Below are positions 2,712-24,139 of a DNA stretch of 26,300 nucleotides, in pieces (the stretch's first letter is position 1; each line of letters begins with the position of its first letter). The translations under genes and the position numbers were made by a program. The notes under the pieces were generated by a model. That model did not search any database and had not been told where the DNA came from. It saw only the letters and a list, made by a program, of their open reading frames with translations. Source of the DNA: Nitrospirota bacterium (GTDB taxonomy: Bacteria; Nitrospirota; UBA9217); the NCBI GenBank assembly GCA_029858565.1, contig JAOUEV010000048.1:1-26300 (forward strand). The letters run 5' to 3'.

Positions 2712-4886
2712 CTATTCCGACTTTTTCGGTTCTTTTCTCTCGACCGCTCGTCCGGTTTTTGCCGTGCTCGGACCGAGAACCTTTTCGAGCATCCCCACGA
2801 TCTTTCGGTGGCCGTATTTCTTTGCCAGCGCGAGCGGCGTCCTGCCCATGTTGTTCCTGATGTTCGCACGGGCGTCGTGCTCCAGCAGAACCTGCACGAC
2901 CTCGGTGTGGCCGTCCCTGGCGGCGACAAGAAGGGGGGTATTCCCGGCGCTGTCGATCACCTGGACATCCGCTCCGCGCTCGAGCAGCTCCCGAACGAGT
3001 TCCGCATTCCCGGCTGCTGCTGCGCTCATGAGCGCGGTCCCGTTGTCCTTGTCCTTCGCGTTGATGTCCGCGCCGCGCTCGATCAGGAGCTTTGCGATCT
3101 CCGTATGTTTTCCCGCATACATGAGCGGGGTACTCCGGTCCCGGCCCGGTCCGTTCACGTCCGCGCCGCGGTCAAGCAGCAACTCTGCGACCTCCTTGTG
3201 ACCGTGGCCAACAGCGGTATGCAGGGGGGTGTTCCTGCTGTATTTCTCCCGGACCGCCACGCCGACGCCGGCATCGAGCAGCATCTGCACCATCTCCCGA
3301 GACCCCTTCTCGCATGCTCCGAAGAACATCTCCCGTCCATGGGTCCTGGTTATCTCCGGGTGCCGGTTGAGCAGGGTCCGGACGGTCTCGATATGTCCGC
3401 TGACCGCCGCGATCGCGAAGGGATGGGTGAAGCCGCGCGGCGATATCTTTATGTCGGCTCCGCGGTCGAGCAGGAGATCGACCACGCCCGCGTGACCATA
3501 CCGGATCGCCACCATGAGCGGCGTGTTGCTGCCATTGTCCTGGACATTTATATCGACCCCTCTCGTGAGGAGCATGCGCACGATCTCCCGGCTTCCCCGC
3601 ATGGAGGCATAGTGCAAGGCAGTAATACCCTTCTCCATCTTCAACTCAGGATCAGCGTTCTTTTCGAGCAGTAGTTTTGCAACAGCCGGATGGTCCCTGC
3701 TTGCCGCCAGCATCAGGGCGGTGTGGCCGAACTGGTCAGCGGTATCCGGATTCTCGCCATCCTGCAGCAGTTTCTTGACCGCCTGAAGGTCCCCTGCTGC
3801 CGCCTTCGCCAGGATGCCTTCGCCCGCGAACTCCCGGGGATTGCCCAGGTCTTCGTCAATGAATTTATTGATCACTCCGCGCAGCTTTTGCCGTTTGGGA
3901 TCGCGCTGATCGAGCAGAGCAGACAGTTTCCCACTCAGTCCGCTGCTGCTCCGGCCCCTGACCTCCTTCTTCATGAACCTCTCCGCCGAGAGCGCAGCGA
4001 TGTCCTTTCTGAGCTTCTCCAGCTTCTTTTGTTCTTCCCGTTCCTGCCGGTCCTTCTCTTGATCCTCTTTGATCAGACGGCTTACTTCAGGCGGTATATG
4101 AGGCGACGGATTAACAGTCGCGTTCAGGATCACGGTTAGGATCTGGATACCGACAAGGGTCAGGTATATCCAGTTGAAATTGCGCGCAAGGAACTCCATT
4201 CCCTTGGCCCCGAGCCGCGACTCGCGGTCCTCGAAGACGATAGCCGTGCCTTTTGTCTCGCTGCGAGGCTGCTCCGGCTGGGCCGTCGTTCCCTCTTCGC
4301 GCGTGAGCGGCCGTCCCTTGGCATCGGTCTCCCGGTACTCCGTCCCCTGCGCAGGCAGTCCGAGGACTAGCAGGACCAGGGCATGGTACTGCTCAACATA
4401 GTAGGAGTTTACCGTGATCTTTTCGCCCTGCTTCGACCAGATAGTCATCTTCTGCTGGGACCCGAAGTGGAAATACTCCTTCTGCACGATCCGCGCCGCT
4501 TCGTCCCATGCAATGAACAGTTCCCGGTTCTTCCAGATTCCCGCCTTGCTCACGACGATCTCGGTCCTGCGCACCTTCCTGCTGGCGATGAAGAACCCTG
4601 CCCCAATGGAGAGGGAGATCGCGATGCCGACCGCGAGGGACATGCCGATGCCAAAGATGACAGCCATCACCGGACAGAGGATCACGAGGCCGAGAGCGGA
4701 CAGGTCCCATTCCCAGACCCACTTCCCCCGGAACCGCCAGGGCCCTTCGAGCGGAAGTCCCTTCCGCTCCAGCTCCTGGGCCCAGCCCTCTTCGGACATG
4801 TCGAGCTGTGCGTGTCCCTTCAGGGCCGCCAGGTCCCGGATTTCATAGATCTTTTCCGGAAACGGCATGCGTGGGCTCATTCCCAT
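2712..4886 (-). CDS. Membrane-anchored ankyrin-repeat protein (TM pair, PH-like segment, TM, coiled coil, about 10 ANK repeats)
   Basis: Repeated ankyrin consensus (GHTALMLAA, GITALHYAS, NTPLMVAI, NTPLHTAV, GTALMSAA, GNTPLLVAA, GRTPLALA), N-terminal hydrophobic segments and a KE-rich helix. Confidence 0.9.
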   Translation of the reverse strand: MGMSPRMPFPEKIYEIRDLAALKGHAQLDMSEEGWAQELERKGLPLEGPWRFRGKWVWEWDLSALGLVILCPVMAVIFGIGMSLAVGIAISLSIGAGFFIASRKVRRTEIVVSKAGIWKNRELFIAWDEAARIVQKEYFHFGSQQKMTIWSKQGEKITVNSYYVEQYHALVLLVLGLPAQGTEYRETDAKGRPLTREEGTTAQPEQPRSETKGTAIVFEDRESRLGAKGMEFLARNFNWIYLTLVGIQILTVILNATVNPSPHIPPEVSRLIKEDQEKDRQEREEQKKLEKLRKDIAALSAERFMKKEVRGRSSSGLSGKLSALLDQRDPKRQKLRGVINKFIDEDLGNPREFAGEGILAKAAAGDLQAVKKLLQDGENPDTADQFGHTALMLAASRDHPAVAKLLLEKNADPELKMEKGITALHYASMRGSREIVRMLLTRGVDINVQDNGSNTPLMVAIRYGHAGVVDLLLDRGADIKISPRGFTHPFAIAAVSGHIETVRTLLNRHPEITRTHGREMFFGACEKGSREMVQMLLDAGVGVAVREKYSRNTPLHTAVGHGHKEVAELLLDRGADVNGPGRDRSTPLMYAGKHTEIAKLLIERGADINAKDKDNGTALMSAAAAGNAELVRELLERGADVQVIDSAGNTPLLVAARDGHTEVVQVLLEHDARANIRNNMGRTPLALAKKYGHRKIVGMLEKVLGPSTAKTGRAVERKEPKKSE

Positions 4887-8165: not shown

Positions 8166-8800
8166 AGGGAACGCTCCCGAATGGCTGTCTTCTTCAGTGC
8201 TTCCCGCGCTTCCACTGAATCGATCCTGCGCAAGGCAATCTTCGCTGTTTCAGCCAACGATGATCGAGCCTGCGTCAAGGACAAGGCAGAGGCCAGCAGT
8301 CCCACCGATGCCGTGTCGCGCAACTCTCCCAGCAGTCCCGCGGCGCTCTCGGCTCGGACACACCTGTTCGGTTCCGGATGCTGCCGCAGCCCTGCGGCAA
8401 GCGTGCCGGTCCCTTTCCATACCATCCGCAGCTGCAGGACCACAACAGCCGCCCAATAGGCCAAGAGCACGGTGTAGCCCGTAGCCACGATGATGAAGAA
8501 CACACCAGGCATTTCCAGGACCGTTCTTCCCGGCTTGCCCGGCGGTCCGATCCGCGCGAACCGTCCGGCCAGACACCAGAGAACGAAGACCACGGTCCAT
8601 GCAAGGAAAAGCGACGCCCAGGTCCGGAGAAACGGAAATATCTCCTGGAACAGTCCGAACATGCAGGCGCTGCAGGCCTGCGCGTCTTTCGGAGCAGTCA
8701 TTCCGGCATCAGCAGTAACAACGTACTCCCCGCGATACGGACGAATAGGGACGGGGAAATATCGCTTTTCATGATTTGCGATCTTTTTCAGTACCGGCAC
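8162..8800 (-). CDS. Membrane protein with C-terminal HEAT/PBS-lyase-like repeats; 5' end probably frameshifted
   Basis: Two TM segments, then VRAESAAGLLGELRD...AKIALRRI. A signal-peptide-like start (ATG 8772, MKSDISPSLFVRIAGSTLLLLMP) is out of frame with AQACSACMF. Confidence 0.55.
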   Translation of the reverse strand: MPVLKKIANHEKRYFPVPIRPYRGEYVVTADAGMTAPKDAQACSACMFGLFQEIFPFLRTWASLFLAWTVVFVLWCLAGRFARIGPPGKPGRTVLEMPGVFFIIVATGYTVLLAYWAAVVVLQLRMVWKGTGTLAAGLRQHPEPNRCVRAESAAGLLGELRDTASVGLLASALSLTQARSSLAETAKIALRRIDSVEAREALKKTAIRERSL

Positions 8801-8939
8801 TCGACCTGCATGTGACGCGACAGGAGCGTCCCGGTGTTCTTTTCCGCAACGGTCATGCCCTCGGGAACGGATGCGGCCCCGCAGACCCAGGCGAAAGGAA
8901 AGAAAAGATGAATTTGAGCGCTCTTGCGACCGCGGTACG

Positions 8940-8969
8940 ATTATAGTATGGATTTCTCACGAGTGTCAA
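8940..8969 (-). promoter_or_regulatory. Perfect-consensus sigma70 promoter
   Basis: Minus strand TTGACA (8969-8964), 18-nt spacer, TATAAT (8945-8940), pointing into the 8800-to-1633 gene run. Confidence 0.8.
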
Positions 8970-8986
8970 CCATCAGAATGGGGGTA

Positions 8987-9455
8987 TTACATGGCGCGGT
9001 GCTCGCGATCCCGTTTAGCCGGACCGCCGACTCTTCCGAGGGTGAACTCTACGTGCCGGTAATATCCCTTGATATCATAAATAATCGTGAGCGGCAGATC
9101 ATAGGTGGAAGAGGAGAACCTCATTCCCTCCCAGACGAGCAGATCAGGCTGCGCATCTCCGTTTTCGGCGAGTAGCTAAATTTCTTGCCGCCTTTTTTAA
9201 AGCGTGCGATATACTGGTCCAGGGCCGCGGCATTATCAAGCACCTCTGCCTCCAGCGAAACCAGCAGATCGCGGGCATTGAGATCGGCCTTCGTCAGCTC
9301 GAACAACACTGCCTTCTCGAATGCGGCGTTCGCCGCGAGAAAAACGCCCATGACCGTCGCAAGAATAACGAATACCTGGCCAACCCAGTAGGCAGGATTC
9401 AGCAGATCGCTCCTCTTGCTTCCCTCCGAAACATCTTTTTTTCCTGACCGCTCAT
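8987..9455 (-). pseudogene. Membrane-anchored hypothetical protein broken by two frameshifts
   Basis: ATG 9455 after a G-rich SD: MSGQEKK / (shift at the A7 run, 9436-9442) DVSEGSKRSDLLNPAYWVGQVFVILATVMGVFLAA... / (shift near 9145-9170) PDLLVWEGMRFSSSTYDLPLTIIYDIKGYYRHVE...AM*. Confidence 0.65.
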
Positions 9456-9578
9456 GGTATCCCCCCCCAGCTACAGTTTTATGTTCGCGTATGCTTCGGC
9501 TCGTCTTCCCTGAGAGTGGGCATTATGAATCAGCAGGAAGCCTGTCGAGAAGACTCATTTTTCATGATGATGAGGGCG

Positions 9579-9608
9579 AGCGTAGCAATAAACAATCGTT
9601 TTTGTCAA
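9579..9608 (-). promoter_or_regulatory. Putative sigma70 promoter for the 9455 gene
   Basis: TTGACA (9608-9603), 18-nt spacer, extended -10 TGcTACGCT (TACGCT at 9584-9579). Confidence 0.45.
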
Positions 9609-9676
9609 TCTGAAAGAACGAGCAATTAATCCGGATAATCAACCAGATATGAGCAGGTCATCCGTTTCAATACCGC

Positions 9677-9699
9677 AAAAAACAGGATTTTTCATCCTG
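9677..9699 (-). terminator. Putative intrinsic terminator for the large-protein/lipoprotein transcript
   Basis: Minus strand CAGGAT-gaaaa-ATCCTG stem-loop followed by T6. Confidence 0.45.
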
Positions 9700-9715
9700 C
9701 CTTCTGCTGTATTTT

Positions 9716-9884
9716 ATCCTAAAAACGGCAGTTGAAAACACAGATTAACACAGATGAAAAGCAAATTCGGACACTTACCTCGCTTAAGACATTCACCAAA
9801 AGGGTGAATCCTGTTTTCATTTGAAGGTCTTGCATTATCCGTATTTATCAGTGTTCATCTGTGGTTAACTGCTTTTTCCAGGTT
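9716..9884. repeat. About 170-bp imperfect inverted-repeat element (REP/MITE-like) built from 10-bp ACACAGAT units
   Basis: Left arm ATCCTAAAAACGGCAGTTGAAAACACAGATTAACACAGATGAA; right arm reverse complement AACCTGGAAAAAGCAGTTAACCACAGATGAACACTGATAAATACGGAT; internal hairpin ATTCACC-aaaag-GGTGAAT. Confidence 0.75.
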
Positions 9885-9933
9885 TATCTGCTGGTCGTTC
9901 GTGATTCGGAACCGTCGGTAGCTGTTCTGCCTT

Positions 9934-10467
9934 CTACTGCAGCTCCACGGTCATGCCCGGCGTGAGCGACGAGGTTATCGTGGTGGTGCTGTTTGTCGAG
10001 ACAATGATGCCGACGGCCTGGAACGATTCTGCTAAGACTGTGAAATCAGCGTCAGCTGGGCTCGTTCCGTTCAGGATGCAATTCACCGTGGCGAACTCGC
10101 CGGTCCCGAAGCCGCCGGCGGACGAGCTCGTAATCATGACCCGTACCGTGGCAGGGATCGTTGTTGTAGCCGCGGTGTACGTCCCGAAGGCTATGGCGCC
10201 GGTTGCCGTTCCGCTGGCGGTCACCACGCCGGAATCCGTCACCTGGTTCGTTGCCGCCACGGTCACGCCTGCAGGAAGCGCGAGCGTGATATCTATTGCG
10301 CCGATGCCGTCCACGCCCGCAGGCAGGGTGCCGGACGTTGCCAGGGTGACAATCGCGGTGGTCGGCGCTGTGTTGCCGCCGCCGCCGCCGCCCCCTCCAC
10401 CCCCGCCGCAAGCAGCAGCCATCGTGAGTGACATCACACATATCAGCAACATGCGCATTCTATTCAT
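9934..10467 (-). CDS. Lipoprotein with poly-Gly linker and a beta-rich, possibly cohesin-like domain
   Basis: Lipobox-like AAAC (Cys20), Gly11, then alternating beta pattern (IGAIDITLALPAGVTV...VRVMI...GFGTGEFATVNC); GGAGG SD. The cohesin assignment is inference. Confidence 0.8.
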   Translation of the reverse strand: MNRMRMLLICVMSLTMAAACGGGGGGGGGGGNTAPTTAIVTLATSGTLPAGVDGIGAIDITLALPAGVTVAATNQVTDSGVVTASGTATGAIAFGTYTAATTTIPATVRVMITSSSAGGFGTGEFATVNCILNGTSPADADFTVLAESFQAVGIIVSTNSTTTITSSLTPGMTVELQ

Positions 10468-10569
10468 TGATAACCTCCGAAGACCTCTTTCCGGCCGATC
10501 CGCGCTTTGAAGAACTGCTGGAACGTGCCGGGTTTCTGTTGGTTTTATCAGTCTTGACTCCGCACTCCC

Positions 10570-13500
10570 CTACCACAGTCCCACGGCCTTGCGCAGGATC
10601 ACGAGCACGTCGCTGATGTCGATCCTGCCGTCCGGCGACGGCTGACCATTCACGAGCGGCGCCACGTCGGCACGAAGCATCTCCACGACGGTAGCGGTAT
10701 CAAGGCCTGCAACCACCCTCAGGATCTTCAGGGCGTCTCCTACCGAGACCGTGCCGTCAGCATCCAGATCGCCGAGCCGGGCATAGATGATGTTCCGGAC
10801 CACGGTGCTGCTGTTGCCGGCCTCGTCCGTGGCAGTGACCGTTATGGCGTAGATCCCCTCCGCGGGGAAGGTGACCTCCTGGGTAAAGCTTCCGGATGCG
10901 ATTGCCGGCGTGTAGGTCGACGTGCCGTCGGTGATCACGACCATTGCCGTGGTGAGGCTGTCGGTCACGGTGCCGCTGATCGTGACGGTCGCGGAGGTGA
11001 CGATTCTGTCCTGATCAGGCATAGTGACTGCCAGGCCGGGCGCAATGCTGTCATAGGTGACCGTACGCTTGAGCGTGTTCGTGTTGCCCGCAAGGTCAGT
11101 TGCCGTGATATCGATGGTGTTGATGCCGGAAACAAGGTTCACCGTGACGGTGAAGCTGTTCCCGGCCATGGATGCCAGTTGCGGGCTGTCGCTGTTCAGC
11201 ACTACCGAGACCGAGGCGTTCTCATCCACCGTGCCGGTGATGGTCGAGACCAGTTGGTTCGTGATGCTGTTGTCAGCAGGCATCGTGATCACCAGGCCCG
11301 GCGCTGCCTGGTCCAAGATGATCGTGCGGCTGTCGGTTGTGGTATTTCCGGCAAGATCGGTCGCAACGGATATGATCGTGTTGTTGCCGGTCACGAGCGT
11401 CACCACATGGCTGAAGCTGCTGTCCCCCTGGACCGTGACCGTCTGGCCGCTGATCACGAGGCTCTCGACCCCACTGCTGTCCGTCACCGTGCCGAAGATG
11501 TTCAGCGTCTGGTTGTTCGTTGTCGCGCCGTCGGAAAGGGTGGAGAGAGAGAGACCGGGTGCTGCCGTGTCCACAGTCCAGGTCGCGGTCGTGGACGCTG
11601 CCTGAGACTGCCAATTCCCGGCGCTGTCCTTTCCGATGACCGAGACCGCATGGCTGCCGTCAGACAATCCTGTAAGAGCTATTGCCGTGGCAACCGGGAT
11701 CTCGGCTGAGTAGCTTCCGCTGTCCAGCTTATACTGGTATGCGGTTACATCGGTCCCGCCGACCGTGAGCGTAGCGCTCGTCTGGTTTGTATCGCTTCCC
11801 GGAGCCCCGGTGATCGTTGCAGTCGGTGCGATGGTGTCGATCGACCAGGCATAGGTCGCCGGCGTGTTGTCCGTATTTCCTGCCTGGTCTGTCGCCTTAA
11901 CCTGGAAGGTATGGCCGCCTTCGGCAAGGATCGAGTACGTTGCCGGGCTGCTGCAGTTTATGAATGAGCCGGAATCGATGCTGCAGACAAAGGTCGACCC
12001 TGTTTCATCGGCGCTGAAGTTGAATAGTGCAGATACCGTGTTCGACAGAACTGCCGGGCTGCTGGTGATCGTAGTATCCGGAGCAGCAGTATCGAGCACG
12101 ATCTCCGCCGACGCGGTTGCGCTGTTCCCGGCAAGGTCGGCTGCCGTGGCAGTGATACTGTTCGTTCCTTCGCTCAGGCCGGTGATCTCGACGGTCCAAG
12201 AGGTCGCCGTGGGATAGGACACTGGAGCAACGGTCGCAGTTGAACATTCGACCGATACCGTTGCCCCTTCTTCCATGGTTCCGCTTGCGGTCTGGCCGGT
12301 TGCATTCGTGGGCGAGGAGACCGGACTGATCGTGACCGCTGGCGCGATGGTGTCGTAAATGATGTTCCGTACCGCTGTGGCGGCGTTGTCCGCCTGGTCG
12401 GTTGCCGTGGCGGTGACCGTATTCTGGCCCACGGACAGATTGGTTATGTCAACCTGCCACGTTGTTGCCGTGGGATAGCTCACCGCTTTAACAGACGCCG
12501 TGGGGCAGGTTACGACCACCGTGACGCCGCTGCTGTCGTCCATGGTGCCACCCACAATGATAGCTGCCTGGTTGGTGCTCGTATCCTGGCCGGGCGAGGT
12601 GATCGCAAGCGACGGGCTGATATTGTCAAAGGTGACCGTCCGCTTGGCAGTCGAGGTGTTCCCTGCCAGGTCCGTTGCCGTGACATCGATGGTGTTGATG
12701 CCGGAAACAAGGTTCACCGTGGCGGTGAAGCTGTTCCCGGCCATGGACGCCAGTTGCGGGCTGTCGCTGTTCAGCACTACCGAGACCGAGGCGTTCTCAT
12801 CCACCGTGCCGGTGATGGTCGAGACGAGCTGGTTCGTGATGCTGTTGTCAGCAGGCATCGTGATCACCAGGCCCGGCGCTGCCTGGTCCAGGGTGATCGT
12901 GCGGCTATCGGTTGTGGTATTTCCGGCCAGGTCGGTCGCAACAGACGTAATCGTATTACTGCCGGTCACGAGCGTCACCACATGGCTGAAACTGTTGTCT
13001 CCCTGGACAGTGACCGTAGTTCCACTGACCACGAGGCTCTGGATCCCGCCGCTGTCCGTCACCGTGCCGTTGATGTTCAGCGTCTGGTTGTTCGTTGTCG
13101 CGCCGTCGGAAAGGGTTGAGACTACGAGCGTCGGCGGCGTTGTGTCATCCTGAGCAAAACTCGCACTGATCGTATGGTCCGTTGTCACTGTGGTGAATGT
13201 ATAAGCAGACACCACGCCGATTGACGATCCGTCAACCAGCACGTCAGCCACATGGTAGCCCGTATCCGGCGTGATCGTGAAGGCCTGATCTGCTCCATGA
13301 TTCACCAGCACCGAGCCTGAGGGTGTGACTCCTCCGCCGGAGCCGGCAGACGCGGTGATGGTGTAGGTGTTTATTGCAAAGGATGCCTCGACCGTGTGGT
13401 TTTCCGTAATATTCGAGATAGTGTAGGTTCCGTTCGAAACCAGACCGATCACACTGATGCTGTTATCTATCAGGCTTGCAAGGTGGTACCCGCTGTCTGG

Positions 13501-18186: not shown

Positions 18187-18533
18187 TCTGCCCTCCCTGG
18201 CAACATTGGGTCTGGTGAAGTATGGATAATTGTTCTTTTCACTGTGGTAACCAGTGATCTTTTACTTTTCGTTCAGGCCGGCGGCAATCCTGTCGGACCT
18301 GCCAGTATCTCCTCTCTGCCAGCCCGCTAGACGCATAACCACCCATTTTATAACAACGACAAAAGGCCGACAGCTATGCAGATTCATGCCTTCCCCCAAC
18401 CTTTTCTCCCGGAAAACTGCGCTTCAGACAAATCGTCCAGATATTATCGAACAAGCGCCATCGACAACTGGCGCTGTTTCTATCAATATAGTCATTCAAG
18501 AGTTTTTTGAATGTATCCCTTTTTATTCCTCGA

Positions 18534-18722
18534 TCATGCTCCGCGTTTTTTCCGCTTATTGGACTTCTCAGCATCGCGATCTTTCGATCGAAGAACTTCC
18601 CAGAGCTCGGTATAGGTGCCGAAGGGCTTTTGCTCCCCTGCTTCGACAGATTCGATGATACCGTTCATTTTCCGGGGATCATCGTTGTCACGGCGATAGA
18701 TCCGAATGATGTAGTTTTCCAC
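18534..18722 (-). CDS. Small 62-aa hypothetical protein
   Basis: GTG 18722 with GGGGAG SD; MENYIIRIYRRDNDDPRKMNGIIESVEAGEQKPFGTYTELWEVL plus a basic tail. From memory it resembles small proteins found beside BTAD regulators (unverified). Confidence 0.7.
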   Translation of the reverse strand: MENYIIRIYRRDNDDPRKMNGIIESVEAGEQKPFGTYTELWEVLRSKDRDAEKSNKRKKRGA

Positions 18723-18799
18723 AATAGCTCCCCGGCAAAACCGCATGGCCCGTGCCGGACGGGTCTCTGCCTTCTGCGGGAGAGCCTACAGCATGAGCG

Positions 18800-18816
18800 G
18801 ATACAGGAGAGATACA
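18800..18816 (-). promoter_or_regulatory. Candidate regulator binding site TGTATC-N5-TGTATC (11-bp period)
   Basis: GATACA at 18800-18805 and 18811-18816, about 80 nt upstream of the 62-aa gene. 11-bp-period direct repeats are typical of SARP/OmpR-type winged-helix sites. Confidence 0.45.
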
Positions 18817-18956
18817 AATAGAAATTTTTATTGAGGATGTTGCAGATTAATTAAATATTATGAAGAATCAAGTGGATACGGACATGGGCAGGAAGGGATA
18901 AGTCGGATACATTCTGCAGTAAAGGGTGAAGGAACGGCATTTTACAGCTTTTACTT

Positions 18957-20222
18957 CTAGAAATCCCGGCCAAAGCTCAGGCCAAGGTACTGGCAGGTAT
19001 TATCATATTCGCCGCTGTTCATGCTGTTCTGTACTGACCGCTTTTCGTACAGCCCGTAATTGTAGAACAGGTCCGTGCGGAATTCATCGCTCCGGTACCC
19101 GGCGCCGACGCTGAAATTATGCTGGTCCGCGTCGGGGTTGCCCGGCTCGAGCGTATGGTCGGGAACGGAGGTCTTGATAAAAGCATAGCCCGTGCGCAGC
19201 GACACTTTATCGCTCAGCTGATAGGCCAGCCCAATCTTGTACTGCAGGGAGTCCTTCCAGTCCAGGGGCGTGGAACCGTCCACGAGGCCCGCTGCGGGCA
19301 CTTCCTGCAATATGTCCATGTCCATGCGCGCGAAGGTAGACCAGCGAACGAGCTCGACGTCAAGATCGACGACAACCTGCGGAACGGGCAGATAGGCCAT
19401 GCCAACGCTCCAGATGTCGGGAAAGACGCTCCTGGTCCGGACAGCGGTGGCGTAGCTTGCCGAGCCGAACAGGGGCTGCAGCGGCGGCGCAATGTTCTCG
19501 ATGGTCATGTCCCCTTGGTAGTCGATCGGGATACGGCTCCGGTAGGCAAAACCGACGCGGAGATCGTCGCGAAGCGCAATGAGCGCGCCGAGGTTATATC
19601 CCCAGCCGTCACCGTCTGCTTCCAGCGTCGACCGGCCGTCGGGAGCGCCGAGGCTGGATTGATCGATCATGCGCTCCATCGTGACCGCTGCCCGCATGTA
19701 ATCGATGCCTGCCGCAACCGATACCGACGGCGTCATCCGCCAGGCGAGCGTCGGATTCACTGAAAAGGTCCCGATGCTGCTCTCGGTGGAGAGATACCTT
19801 GTCTGTCCGGTCCTGCTCCAGGTCCTGCCGCCGATCCCGAAAGGGGAGTACAGTCCCACGCCGAAGACGATGTCCGGATTCCCGCTGTCAGAGACAAGGT
19901 AGAGATGGCCGGGAAAAAAGACACGGGATTCGGTCGTTTCGCTCCCCCCGGACGGACTGGTGTAGGTCGTGGACGGCGCCAGGGCCGTGATCCCGCCATA
20001 CACGCTCGTTCCGCGCATCTGGGTGAGGCCGCCGGGATTGAACAGGATCGCGGAAGGATCGTCCGCAACAGCCACGAAGGCCGTGCCCATGCCCGCGGCA
20101 CCTGCGCCATGGACCGGTCCGCCTGCAACTGCTGCTCCTGGGAACAGCGCAAGGCAGAGCGCGGCGATCAAGAAGATTCGACGGATTCCGGCTCGCTTTA
20201 ACCATTCACTATACTTACCCAC
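18957..20222 (-). CDS. OmpP1/FadL-family outer-membrane beta-barrel
   Basis: Signal peptide; hatch motif GMGTAFVAVADDPSAILFNPGGL; GWGYNLGAL and LRTGY strands; terminal Phe; GTG start overlaps the regulator stop by 8 nt. Confidence 0.9.
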   Translation of the reverse strand: MGKYSEWLKRAGIRRIFLIAALCLALFPGAAVAGGPVHGAGAAGMGTAFVAVADDPSAILFNPGGLTQMRGTSVYGGITALAPSTTYTSPSGGSETTESRVFFPGHLYLVSDSGNPDIVFGVGLYSPFGIGGRTWSRTGQTRYLSTESSIGTFSVNPTLAWRMTPSVSVAAGIDYMRAAVTMERMIDQSSLGAPDGRSTLEADGDGWGYNLGALIALRDDLRVGFAYRSRIPIDYQGDMTIENIAPPLQPLFGSASYATAVRTRSVFPDIWSVGMAYLPVPQVVVDLDVELVRWSTFARMDMDILQEVPAAGLVDGSTPLDWKDSLQYKIGLAYQLSDKVSLRTGYAFIKTSVPDHTLEPGNPDADQHNFSVGAGYRSDEFRTDLFYNYGLYEKRSVQNSMNSGEYDNTCQYLGLSFGRDF

Positions 20223-23200
20223 CGGATGTTACCTCCCTGAAAATCGCCTTTGTGTCCGCCGAAGGTTCGAGCGCAAGCTTTGCCCGGAGAACTGATTCGC
20301 ACCGCTGGTAGGTCCGCGCGGCATCCGCTTGTCTGCCGATACGGCCATAGCAACTTATGAGCCGCTGATAGAACAGCTCTTCCAGATCGTCGATGTCAAG
20401 GCCCCGGAGATAGCAGCCAATGGCCCCATCCCAGTCCTGTTCCGCTTCCCGCGATTCGGCCATGAAGCGCACGGCCCGCAGGTATCTGCTCCGAAGCCGC
20501 TCGCGCGGCGAGATCGTCCAGGGCTCTTCCCGGTCCTGGTCAAGGAAATGGCCCTGATACAGGGAAAGCGCTTTTTCCACCATGGCGCGGGCCTCCTTCT
20601 GTGTCACGGCCGCGTCGCTGCCGACAAGCGAATCACGGGGAAGGAAATCGACTCCCGCCTCGTCCAGCATCTGCTCGAACGCCCAGGCATCGCACCAGAA
20701 GTATCGCGGATCAAGGGTGATTTTCCCTTCCTGGAACCTGACTGCCTCATCGCTCCCGATCATGTGCCTGAGCCGGTGGAGCAGACTTTTGAGGGCAAGA
20801 TGCGCCGCGTCGCCCTCGGCATCAGGCCAGAGCGCATCGGACAGCTTCTCCTTTGCCACGTCCTCTCCTCCCAGTGCAATCAGCATCTTCAGAAGATCGA
20901 GCGGCCGCTTCTGGACCTTGCCGGAAAAAACCACCGGTTTTCCGTCCACGAACAGGGCAAACCCTCCGAACACGCGGACCTTCACTTTCCACGGCCAGGC
21001 TTCGCCAGCCAATACCGGTTTCGGCGGGAGAATGGCGCGGTCGAGGATCAGCTGCCGGACAAAGTCTGTTTCGATCCCTGCCTCAAAGGCCTTTGCGCAG
21101 AGCTGTGACATCATATTTTGACGCCATAATCCGCAAGTATTAAAGCCTCGCTGTTTCGCGAGCTCGAACGCCGCGGCCAGGTGGCGGGCGCCCTCGCTGT
21201 CATCCGCCCTGGCATAGGCACGATAGGCTTCGAAGAGCCTGCAGTCGCATTCATAAAAACTATTACTGTATATGCGTATCATGGCGCGCGTCTTATCAAG
21301 GTACTCCTGCGCTTTCTCGGCATTGCCGAGTTCATGATGAATGTGAGCTGCGGTGAGATAAATACTGAAAAGAGACGGTGTTCGGTAAAGGTTCTGCATC
21401 AGACTTTCGGATCGGTTGATATGATCCAGACCGAGATCGAGTTCGCTCCGTTCGAGGGCATCGTAGGCCGCGAGAAAATAATATAACGACTGGTCCCAGG
21501 CCGGTCTCGTTCCGATCATGGCTTCCATGGCGTTCAGGGCGGAACGGGAGGCGGAATAATCATGGGAACTCGTGTGCACCCATGCCCGGTACCCGAGGAA
21601 AATGAAGTCGAAGATGTGTACGCCTGAGCGGTCTGCGTGATCAAGACCCTCGGCCACAAGCGCCAGACAGCGCTTTGCATCATGCCGCATGAGGTTGGTG
21701 TACATGACTTTGCACATGTAGAAACATGTAATTGCAAAGTCGTTCGCGCTCTTCCGGCCCGCGAGCCCCTCGAGTTCGGACAAATACTGCATCGCTCCGA
21801 TGACGTCTCCCCGCAGCATCTGGCGGAACGATGCGTGAAAGACCGTATTACAGCGCAGATTAATGTCAGACGACAAACTTGTCGCCGCCAGGGCGCGGGA
21901 CATCCAGTGGTCGAAATCCGGGGAGTCCGGCCGCCACATGCACAAGGACCGGAACATGCTCCCTGAGACGCGCGCTTCAATCTCGCTCGGCGGGATCGCT
22001 CCGAAACGAGTCTCCAGGAGAGGCAGTTCATCGATCAGGTCATCCAGCTTGCGCAGGTCATCGAAACCGTACAGGACCGCTTCGGTCATCCCGGCCCAGG
22101 CAAGAAACATCCCTGCTGGATCATTGGCCCGGGAAAATCCTTCCGCTGCCTTCTCAAGCAGCCTGACGCTCTCGGCCGGCGCGAACGCGAACTGACAGGT
22201 GCTGCTCCAGAACAGCAGCCAGGGATTCGACTCGACAACTGCCTGGGGCAAGAGGGCAAGCCAGTGCGCAAGCGTGGTCTGGCGGCCTTGCTGCAGGAGT
22301 GTTTGCGCATGGGCCGTCGCCAGTCCGGACAGCGCCTGCCAGTCCTCTGCTTCCGCATACAGTTCAGCGGCTTGTTCCGGCTGGCCGGCATCGGAAAGAA
22401 GCGTCGCTGCAATATCGCGCAAGTCCCGCAACGCCTGTGGCGGGAGCGTTTCTTTGAGCTTTTCCAGAAGAAAGGCCCGGAACAGGGGATGGTACTGGTA
22501 CATCCGCATGGGCCCCAGCGTTTCCACGGTGAAAAAATTGTTGCGCACGAGACTTCTCAGAATACTGCGAGCTTTCTCGTTGCCGGTCATTTTCTCGGCA
22601 TCGGTCCCCGTAAAATCCTTCAGGATCGAGGTCTTGAGCATCAACTCCTGCTCAACGCCTTTTGCCTTCCGAAACACTTCGTTCGCGAAATAACCGAACG
22701 CGCCGTCCGGCACGACCCGCTCCGAGCCGCCTGCCCCCGATGTTGTCAGGAGCACGATTCCGGCGATCCAGCCCTGCGAGCTTTCCATAAGCGCCACGGA
22801 CCGCTTGCGGTCCATGTGCTTCGATGCCAGGTACGCGCCTGTTTCCGCGTTCGTGAACCGGAGATCATCCCACCCCAGCCGCGCCATCCGTCCGTTGGCC
22901 TGAAGCCGGGCAAATGCCTCCGGAGGCTCGGTGCGGCTCAGCACGATCACCCCGATCCCCGGCGGCAGGTTCGAAAGGCCGGTGCAGATCACCTCGTGAA
23001 AACCGGCTCTCGGCAGGGGCCCTGCCCCGGCGCCCGCATCCTGATAGTTGTCCAGCACCAGAACAGACGGCGTCTTCATCCGCATACAGAGTTCCTCAAA
23101 GAATGTTCGGGTGAAGGCAGGAACGCCCATCAGATACTCCGGCGTGAGCTTCGGCATTGGTTTCCGCTTGCGGGGACTGACTTTCTGCGCGGCAAGCCCG

Positions 23201-23457
23201 AGATAATGGAAGAAGGTTGACGGATCGGCATCTGACTCATCTACTTGATACCAGAGGCAGGAACGTTCGCGGTGTTCGATATAACTGCTGATCAGCGTGG
23301 TCTTGCCGGACCCGGCAGGAGCGGATACCCAGACGAGCGGCCGCTTCTGCTCCTTGTCGAGCAGGTCGAACAGCCGCTTACGGAGAAGAGCGCCGGACGC
23401 AGAAGGACGGCGTATCTTTGTCGAACCACCCGGATGGTAAGAGGAATCCCTTGACAT
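20215..23457 (-). CDS. MalT-like STAND ATPase transcriptional regulator with C-terminal winged-helix and BTAD domains
   Basis: TKIRRP...R.RL, Walker A APAGSGKTT, Walker B LVLDNYQ, GWIAG, YQYHPLF, TPR-like middle, then VRVFGGFAL...LWPD...LHRLR...CDAWAF...LYQGHFL...L.IDDLEE.FYQRL...LEPS. Start ATG 23457 preferred; the ORF is open to 23496. Confidence 0.9.
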   Translation of the reverse strand: MSRDSSYHPGGSTKIRRPSASGALLRKRLFDLLDKEQKRPLVWVSAPAGSGKTTLISSYIEHRERSCLWYQVDESDADPSTFFHYLGLAAQKVSPRKRKPMPKLTPEYLMGVPAFTRTFFEELCMRMKTPSVLVLDNYQDAGAGAGPLPRAGFHEVICTGLSNLPPGIGVIVLSRTEPPEAFARLQANGRMARLGWDDLRFTNAETGAYLASKHMDRKRSVALMESSQGWIAGIVLLTTSGAGGSERVVPDGAFGYFANEVFRKAKGVEQELMLKTSILKDFTGTDAEKMTGNEKARSILRSLVRNNFFTVETLGPMRMYQYHPLFRAFLLEKLKETLPPQALRDLRDIAATLLSDAGQPEQAAELYAEAEDWQALSGLATAHAQTLLQQGRQTTLAHWLALLPQAVVESNPWLLFWSSTCQFAFAPAESVRLLEKAAEGFSRANDPAGMFLAWAGMTEAVLYGFDDLRKLDDLIDELPLLETRFGAIPPSEIEARVSGSMFRSLCMWRPDSPDFDHWMSRALAATSLSSDINLRCNTVFHASFRQMLRGDVIGAMQYLSELEGLAGRKSANDFAITCFYMCKVMYTNLMRHDAKRCLALVAEGLDHADRSGVHIFDFIFLGYRAWVHTSSHDYSASRSALNAMEAMIGTRPAWDQSLYYFLAAYDALERSELDLGLDHINRSESLMQNLYRTPSLFSIYLTAAHIHHELGNAEKAQEYLDKTRAMIRIYSNSFYECDCRLFEAYRAYARADDSEGARHLAAAFELAKQRGFNTCGLWRQNMMSQLCAKAFEAGIETDFVRQLILDRAILPPKPVLAGEAWPWKVKVRVFGGFALFVDGKPVVFSGKVQKRPLDLLKMLIALGGEDVAKEKLSDALWPDAEGDAAHLALKSLLHRLRHMIGSDEAVRFQEGKITLDPRYFWCDAWAFEQMLDEAGVDFLPRDSLVGSDAAVTQKEARAMVEKALSLYQGHFLDQDREEPWTISPRERLRSRYLRAVRFMAESREAEQDWDGAIGCYLRGLDIDDLEELFYQRLISCYGRIGRQADAARTYQRCESVLRAKLALEPSADTKAIFREVTSGG

Positions 23458-24139
23458 GGATCGGCAGCCGCTCCTGGACGAAATACTTGTCAGCAAATCT
23501 TTTGTCGCTTATAGCACGTATTGATGGAGCAATGGAGCACCTGGTCTTTCCGCCCTCCTCAGGAACCTGGGGCTCTGATGGAGAGGAGATAATTTCCTTA
23601 AGCATTAAAAAAACCTGCGCTTCGCTACGGATGAACCGCATCGATGCCTGCCATTCGTCGGCCCTGCCGGCACACCCTTTTACTCCACAGAGGTACATCA
23701 GCCTTTATTCTTACAATAAAAAGACCGCGAGCGGCATGGTAATCAACCCATGCCTTTCTGCCTGACCTCTCCTGAAAGAACCTTCCTCCGAGCACGTCCG
23801 TCCGCACTTCCTAAGGTCTCTTAATACCTGAGATATGCTATGAAAAAATAAACAGATTTCTGAAAATTAGGAACTTTGTCGAAAAACATTCATACTCTAC
23901 CAAAAAGCTGGCACTTGTTCAAACGGAAATAAAACTTTATTCCTATACGGAATATAGATAGTACAAAGTTGGTTCCGATGTCAAGCAACTTAATATTTAG
24001 GAACTAACAAACAACAAGTTAACTAGCAAGCGTGAAATAAATTGGGGAGTTAAAAAGGGAGGAGATGATATCGATTTATTCCAAACAGGTGTGCATGATC
24101 GGATTTATTACCACAGGATACGGCTATAGAAGAAAATGC

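Follow-up and report, generated by a model that had tools for sequence, protein, structure and literature searches.

How might a bacterium with two membranes hold a very large secreted protein on its cell, and could a small neighbouring lipoprotein be the anchor? This question is raised by a locus on contig JAOUEV010000048.1 of a Nitrospirota bacterium (assembly GCA_029858565.1), of which positions 1 to 26,300 were analysed (hereafter the window, that is, the whole stretch of 26,300 nucleotides, nt). Here, the gene for a giant secreted protein with a dockerin-like module at its C-terminus is followed on the same strand by a lipoprotein gene. The original prediction for this DNA read the two as a non-cellulosomal dockerin-cohesin pair that anchors an adhesin to the membrane of a diderm. 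In this study, we propose that the C-terminal module most likely docks directly on the cohesin-fold domain of the lipoprotein and in this way tethers the Sec-exported cargo to the envelope, a reading that we hold with reasonable, though by no means full, confidence. On this reading, the locus is best explained as a cassette of two genes, 'cargo plus anchor', that would work on the cohesin-dockerin principle in a diderm.

The giant protein starts with a predicted Sec-type signal peptide, read from the sequence as MIRRLISIAAFISIMAVGAGSAHA, and a Pfam scan assigned 14 RCC1 repeats, FG-GAP repeats and many Ig-like domains (Big_13, Glucodextran_B, Big_9) to its body. Its C-terminal end is RLGDLDADGTVSVGDALKILRVVAGLDTATVVEMLRADVAPLVNGQPSPDGRIDISDVLVILRKAVGLW, followed by the stop codon, with the final stretch GDLDADGTVSVGDALKILRVVAGLDTATVVEMLRADVAPLVNGQPSPDGRIDISDVLVILRKAVGLW. 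At this end lies the duplicated calcium-loop/helix motif with an insertion in its second loop that had been described from the sequence. The module consists of two tandem loop-helix segments, with helices at module positions 20-30 and 62-72. Loop 1 of the window protein, DLDADGTVSVGD, is a canonical DxDxDG...D loop with Asp at positions 1, 3, 5 and 12, and loop 2 keeps D...PDGRIDISD plus the insertion. In an alignment of 22 modules from the window genome and its relatives (alignment A2), the second loop is made of an invariant D-V-A-P and P-D-G-x-I-D-x-x-D split by the inserted stretch, which is always present and is modelled as a short hairpin. Residues D22, D45, V46, P48, D57 and D64 are invariant, and the last residue of the module is Trp in 18/22 and Phe in 4/22.

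When the 76-amino-acid (aa) tail was searched alone, Pfam Dockerin_1 (PF00404) matched with 21.9 bits (E 2e-4), below the cut-off of 22.9 bits; the match spans profile positions 1-38 only, that is, the first repeat only, and weaker EF-hand matches come after it. A Dockerin_1 search of the genome gave 15.6 bits, a Pfam scan of the whole giant protein reported nothing for the tail, and NCBIfam dockerin_GC reached 13.8 and 19.3 bits, under its cut-off of 29. The A2 profile found dockerins among the PDB sequences, only at E 0.07-2.4. In the AlphaFold2 (AF2) model of the module (predicted local distance difference test score, pLDDT, 90.3), three helices form what appears to be the three-helix dockerin fold. 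A Foldseek search of the PDB returned dockerin chains at all ranks from 1 to 31 (template modelling score, TM, 0.54-0.84 by target; root-mean-square deviation, rmsd, 1.2-3.8 Å; 17-32% identity), the best being type I dockerins. The near-threshold Dockerin_1 score and the match of the predicted fold bear out the dockerin-like tail of the original prediction: as modelled, it has a dockerin fold and a dockerin-like sequence just outside the curated family.

The lipoprotein open reading frame (ORF) starts at 10467, exactly 102 nt past the stop of the giant gene, with a ribosome-binding site GGAGG at 10474-10478, 6 nt ahead of the ATG, and no terminator-like site was found on the minus strand between 9300 and 10700. 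The protein begins with MNRMRMLLICVMSLTMAAAC, continues with 11 Gly and ends in a single all-beta domain in the model; the spacing, the Gly11 tether and the one beta-rich domain that had been described were all confirmed in the sequence and the AF2 model. By eye, the lipobox reads MNRMRMLLICVMSLTMAAA-C, in which Ala at -3 is less usual. Over 48 homologues (alignment A1), most of which carry L-x-[GAS]-C, conservation of the lipobox Cys is at least 90%, and Gly/Ser-rich linkers are also found in the homologues. A word-index search yielded 55 homologues, mostly lipoproteins of about 170 aa, with the conserved motifs LPAGVTV, GVVTASG and GFGTGEFATVNC. In an exhaustive profile search, the family comprised 1282 clusters (at 50% identity) at E ≤0.001, 889 at ≤1e-10 and 204 at ≤1e-30, some members having 2-3 copies of the domain. 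The family appears as 'hypothetical protein' in the sources that give a name, seven homologues that were looked up had no public name, and the window lipoprotein matched none of the Pfam or NCBIfam families.

The AF2 model of the lipoprotein has a mean pLDDT of 88.9, rising above 95 over residues 34-177, and contains nine strands. VIA-align, which is independent of Foldseek, compared it with 48,161 representative chains and placed cohesin entries at ranks 1-22 (Z 9.4-7.0; rmsd about 3 Å; 108-130 residues aligned; 2xdh at Z 8.9), the first other fold following at Z 6.0. The entry at rank 13 is titled merely 'protein-protein interaction module' of Clostridium perfringens glycoside hydrolase family 84 (GH84). 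Cohesins also head the Foldseek list (top 2xdh at E 0.0098), and the ESM Atlas gave, as leads only, a Cohesin cluster at 0.88 by features and PF00963 clusters up to TM 0.61 by structure. The lipoprotein domain is thus predicted to be a nine-stranded cohesin-type beta-sandwich. The two types of module also occur in one protein. P0028, a metagenome protein of 233 aa, has a signal peptide, a Pfam-positive dockerin (24.9 bits) and then the family's cohesin-fold domain; it is a natural fusion that unites plug and socket in a single chain, as an adaptor would.

The two genes are coupled beyond the window. In the whole genome, tblastn found exactly two modules and two lipoproteins, with a lipoprotein after either module; the pairing is not due to chance. 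The giant protein of the second locus, on another contig, has 2398 aa and a different body (DUF5122 propeller, Big_13, Big_6, fn3). It ends in a module that is 62% identical to that of the window, and a paralogous lipoprotein (47% identity) comes 111 nt later. We compared 61 genomes, namely the own genome and its genus, family and phylum relatives (Nitrospirota). The lipoprotein domain is present in 17 of them at E <1e-25, all in one family; further matches at E around 1e-4, which covered signal peptide and linker only, were left uncounted. The module was found 29 times in 16 genomes, all among the 17 with the lipoprotein. Both parts are present in 16/61 genomes and neither in 44, and one has the lipoprotein only, at a locus at a contig end. 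In 23 of the 27 testable loci, the lipoprotein is preceded on the same strand by a module-bearing ORF that ends 42-184 nt before it. Counted by module, 23/29 are directly followed by the lipoprotein and the other six lie within about 22 kb on the same contig and strand, in three clusters with one lipoprotein each. The counts over the 61 genomes are not independent because the genomes are kin. Co-occurrence had been suggested as a check on the pair, and it was found: both-or-neither in 60/61 genomes and adjacency in 23/27 loci with unrelated cargo are hard to explain without a functional link.

In the three clusters (G031:C4, G014:C14 and G021:C203), three dockerin-tailed proteins are encoded together with a single lipoprotein. 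The lipoprotein of G031:C4 (L023, 222000-229000) has two tandem cohesin-fold domains, like a mini-scaffoldin. A wider scan with one genome per species gave 58 module loci, in Nitrospirota metagenome-assembled genomes (MAGs), Geobacter, Geomonas, Desulfuromonadales, a Sulfurifustaceae MAG and others. The cohesin-fold domain lies within 3 kb downstream in 24/58 of these, often as the C-terminal part of a longer lipoprotein. In cultured Geomonas (L057, L060, L063, L066-L068, about 3280-4800, + strand), the gene of the dockerin-tailed protein is followed by that of a conserved lipoprotein of about 495 aa, which lacks the cohesin-fold domain, and all Geomonas genomes with the module (5/5) carry the domain elsewhere.

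Several observations weigh against direct docking on the lipoprotein. At the sequence level, Pfam Cohesin (PF00963) did not match the lipoprotein domain at E up to 10 and was found in 0/19 longer family members. The same family gave no match to the window lipoprotein in a search of its own genome at E up to 0.1, and PF00963 is precomputed in none of 120 listed homologues. The A1 profile had 14 weak matches among the PDB sequences, none of them a cohesin. An hhalign comparison of A1 with operon-linked Pfam-type cohesins (alignment A4) gave a probability of 11% (E 0.0027) over 38 columns, which span the PG-x-VR...G-x-G-x-x-A-T strands; the A4 profile itself found two cohesin chains among the PDB sequences at E about 0.08. 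The link of the lipoprotein domain to cohesins at the sequence level is unproven; the original cohesin reading is supported by the fold of the AF2 model and its VIA-align matches. The structural matches have their own limits. Foldseek gave no match to the lipoprotein at E ≤0.001, and no Foldseek E-value for the module is below 0.02, none reaching 0.001, as is usual for such a short domain. Both folds are predictions of a network whose training included solved cohesins and dockerins, and loop 1 has the canonical D/N-x-D/N-x-D/N...D/E in only 9/22 modules.

The gene neighbourhoods hold exceptions as well. Four of the 27 lipoprotein loci have no upstream module, namely L018 (another upstream gene), L024 (a third gene, no module), L028 (a fragment) and L029 (a different lipoprotein architecture), and 32/58 module loci of the wider scan showed no part of the lipoprotein domain within 3 kb, two more having only an N-terminal piece. 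The many loci of the wider scan with no lipoprotein nearby, as well as the weak EF-hand matches of the module, would fit the view that the two proteins do not interact at all, with a module that only binds calcium to stabilise the giant protein and a lipoprotein that is an unrelated, co-transcribed protein of the envelope. The both-or-neither distribution and the adjacency next to unrelated cargo bodies argue against this view, and we regard it as very improbable.

A third gene must also be counted against docking on the lipoprotein. When the phylum was searched with Pfam Cohesin, matches appeared directly downstream of several of these lipoproteins. The product is a secreted protein of about 414-478 aa that is not a lipoprotein. 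A cohesin at its N-terminus is joined by a linker rich in Ser, Thr and Pro to a C-terminal domain, which has one EF-hand-like loop and ends in DLNGDG..D....IFTANYL, a stretch resembling half a dockerin; short forms consist of the cohesin alone. In one relative (L022), its cohesin scores 26.5 bits, above the cut-off of 24.1. The product at the second locus of the window genome, P0270, is 38% identical to that relative (E 5e-81), and its cohesin scores 16.5 bits. The presence of a Pfam-type cohesin speaks for these cassettes being cohesin-dockerin systems, and it also means that the lipoprotein is not the sole candidate socket. Potentially, the real socket is the cohesin of the third protein, and the lipoprotein is otherwise employed, for example in anchoring this third protein, which would make a two-tier adaptor system. 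The third gene follows the lipoprotein in 9/23 pair loci, including the second locus of the genome, and in two loci without a visible module; at L024, lipoprotein and third gene stand without a dockerin protein upstream. In contrast, 14/23 pair loci have no third gene within the flanks examined. It is absent from the window, where no remnant was found in the 1.1-kb gap downstream of the lipoprotein, and the one copy in the genome is at the other locus. Of the two candidate sockets, it is the lipoprotein that accompanies the module more regularly, and we consider a socket on the third protein unlikely.

Two further points concern the envelope. The Gly at position +2 of the lipoprotein means that its face could be periplasmic, and no route across the outer membrane was identified for either the giant protein or the lipoprotein. 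This second point would suit a lipoprotein that acts as a dedicated helper (chaperone or usher) for export, folding or outer-membrane passage, with the module as a sorting signal and no permanent anchor. The strict gene order and coupling, cargo first and helper next, would agree with such a role, as would the position of the module at the extreme C-terminus with its terminal Trp or Phe. Sorting signals often end in such C-terminal residues. However, no secretion genes are conserved beside the pair, and both parts have the predicted folds of a known stable binding pair. Three tagged proteins per lipoprotein, lipoproteins with several domains and the dockerin-domain fusion fit a socket better than a one-to-one chaperone. 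A helper role is thus rather improbable, and direct docking remains the reading that we prefer.

If docking is accepted, the following sequence of events can be proposed. The giant protein would be exported by Sec and carry, at its very C-terminal end, a folded dockerin-like module that calcium probably stabilises. The lipoprotein, presumably co-transcribed with the giant gene, would be lipidated at Cys20 and held off the membrane by its Gly11 tether. Its single cohesin-fold domain would then bind the module non-covalently, potentially in a calcium-dependent manner, so that the giant protein would be tethered to the cell envelope, most likely at the outer membrane, where it might act as an adhesin. 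That the organism has an outer membrane follows from a FadL/TodX-type barrel gene in the window; four secretins in the genome are cited with this barrel for a diderm envelope.

The module is not confined to one kind of passenger. In 21 module-bearing ORF fragments, varied domains were detected (Big_3_5/MBG_2, Big_12, YDG, Lcl_C, Peptidase_C13). Enzymes carry the tail as well: a cytochrome c peroxidase of the di-haem type (CCP_MauG), a haem peroxidase of the animal type that has RTX repeats, and a Peptidase_C13 resembling legumain. Such a wide variety of passenger domains is what a portable tag would lead one to expect; in the relatives, the module is attached to Ig-repeat proteins as well as to haem peroxidases and the legumain-like peptidase. 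Scans of the two giant proteins and of the 21 fragments revealed no catalytic domain of a glycoside hydrolase. Cellulosomes are defined by carbohydrate-active cargo and a multi-cohesin scaffoldin; neither was found here, and the window lipoprotein has a single domain. Since the dockerin-bearing proteins examined have no carbohydrate-active catalytic domain, the term 'non-cellulosomal' of the original prediction fits.

The principle of docking is known from other systems. The cohesins of OlpA and OlpC of Clostridium thermocellum (PDB 3ul4, 4dh2), which are single-cohesin surface anchors, are both among the top fold matches of the lipoprotein. As in these proteins, one envelope-tethered module, here of predicted cohesin fold, would receive the type-I-like C-terminal dockerin of a secreted protein. 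The surface cohesins of cellulosome producers are anchored by SLH repeats on the monoderm wall, whereas the anchor in this diderm would be a lipidated Cys plus the Gly11 tether. The cargo differs too, being a repeat protein that is not an enzyme instead of the glycoside hydrolase of cellulosome producers. Furthermore, unlike OlpA and OlpC, the window lipoprotein has no detectable Pfam Cohesin similarity, the second dockerin loop has an insertion, and cargo and anchor form a fixed gene pair. Non-cellulosomal cohesins offer another comparison. Those of Archaeoglobus fulgidus (2xdh) and of the glycoside hydrolases of C. perfringens (2vo8, 2w1n, 2o4e) likewise show the cohesin fold outside cellulose degradation, and a survey by Peer et al. 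in 2009 (FEMS Microbiol Lett) is said to cover such cohesin-dockerin modules. In contrast to the lipoprotein domain, the Archaeoglobus and C. perfringens modules are recognisable by sequence; the passages available on them do not describe a lipoprotein anchor or an operonic one-to-one pairing with giant proteins.

Syntrophic sulfate reducers and anaerobic methanotrophic (ANME) archaea have annotated cohesin/dockerin 'adhesins', according to excerpts of two papers (PMC10553843, PMC9012536). There, as here, dockerin and cohesin proteins of anaerobic environmental diderms or archaea, encoded by adjacent genes, are read as adhesion or assembly devices and not as cellulosomes. The cohesins in these excerpts were annotated through domain databases and are thus Pfam-type, whereas the window lipoprotein family escapes such annotation; the two sets may overlap. 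A literature search, shallow and partly limited to excerpts and thus weak evidence of absence, found no natural lipoprotein-anchored cohesin in a diderm. What differs from the known systems is the profile-invisible family of predicted cohesin fold, the lipid and Gly tether in a diderm, the fixed operon pair and the inserted dockerin loop.

Going further, it is tempting to speculate that the lipoprotein family is a sequence-distinct, unannotated cohesin clade that serves as a general envelope receptor for the many 'orphan' dockerin-tagged exoproteins in Nitrospirota, Geobacteraceae and other anaerobic diderms, among them adhesin-like giants, haem peroxidases and peptidases. This would be a modular lipid-anchored surface display, in which the third gene, with its Pfam-type cohesin and EF-hand tail, would be an optional adaptor leading to two-tier assemblies, and it would amount to a minimal non-cellulolytic counterpart of the cellulosome on the outer membrane. 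We put this tentative generalisation at slightly under an even chance. Large secreted proteins of environmental diderms commonly carry dockerin-like tails, whose binding partner is mostly not known. If the docking is real, a small lipid-anchored cohesin-fold neighbour supplies the partner for a large group (the 1282 clusters given above) and shows by what non-covalent means proteins on the megadalton scale, and extracellular enzymes too, are kept on the cells of bacteria with two membranes. The question is open to experiment, as two short domains are involved and cultured Geomonas species carry both parts. Clostridial cohesins have already been grafted on Gram-negative surfaces by engineers, and a native lipoprotein version could offer them a ready-made alternative. 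The coordinates of the features are given in Table 1.

Table 1. Positions of the cassette, its parts and related features (window coordinates unless a locus or contig is named).
Feature	Position	Strand	Basis or remarks
Lipoprotein gene, 177 aa	9934-10467 (stop codon 9934-9936)	minus	ORF and translation
Signal peptide and lipobox, residues 1-20 (…TMAAAC), Cys20 predicted lipidated	10408-10467	minus	by eye
Gly11 tether, residues 21-31	10375-10407	minus	glycines counted
Predicted cohesin-fold domain, residues 34-177	9937-10368	minus	AF2, VIA-align, Foldseek
Intergenic spacer, 102 nt	10468-10569	minus	read from sequence
Dockerin-like C-terminal module, last 67 residues GDLDADG...AVGLW	10573-10773	minus	Pfam, AF2, Foldseek
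Giant secreted protein gene, 2538 aa	10570-18186	minus	ORF and translation; longest ORF of the window
FadL/TodX-type outer-membrane barrel gene, directly upstream of the giant gene	18957-20222	minus	Pfam Toluene_X, E 7e-52
AAA/BTAD-type regulator, 1093 aa, two genes upstream of the giant gene	20215-23496	minus	Pfam
Third gene, about 425 aa	L001 14288-15565 (own genome, C88:41287-42564)	+	homologues at L004, L008, L009, L010, L015, L022, L024, L025, L033
Loci of enzyme-borne tails	L030 508-2904; L031 3545-6499; L023 4021-6999	+; -; -	

Upstream of the giant gene lies a BTAD regulator, and the second dockerin-lipoprotein locus of the genome also has one upstream. The regulator of the window is of the AAA+BTAD type and that of the other locus (L001 55-2796, + strand) of the TPR+BTAD type; at the latter, regulator and cargo are separated by genes for an IS200-like transposase and a HigB-like toxin. 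A possible link of the regulator to the pair is suggested only by its presence at both loci. The FadL-like barrel was considered as a third conserved part of the cassette and rejected, the 425-aa gene at the second locus being unrelated to it; the barrel gene is not conserved at that locus. Nothing ties the four secretins, or a pseudopilin-like gene of the window, to the dockerin-lipoprotein pair.

Neither Rfam families nor tRNA genes were found in the window. Two stretches, 8800-9933 (1.1 kb, downstream of the lipoprotein) and 18187-18956 (770 nt, upstream of the giant gene), are AT-richer, with a GC content of about 0.49 compared with about 0.59 elsewhere, and have no ORF longer than 83 aa. 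Finally, a 724-aa protein encoded at positions 2712-4886 on the minus strand consists of little else than ankyrin repeats (Ank_2, E 8e-108), an uncommon make-up for a bacterial protein; after its gene come an ORF of 233 aa that matched no family and one of 306 aa that weakly matched a type II secretion system (T2SS) pseudopilin (T2SSG).

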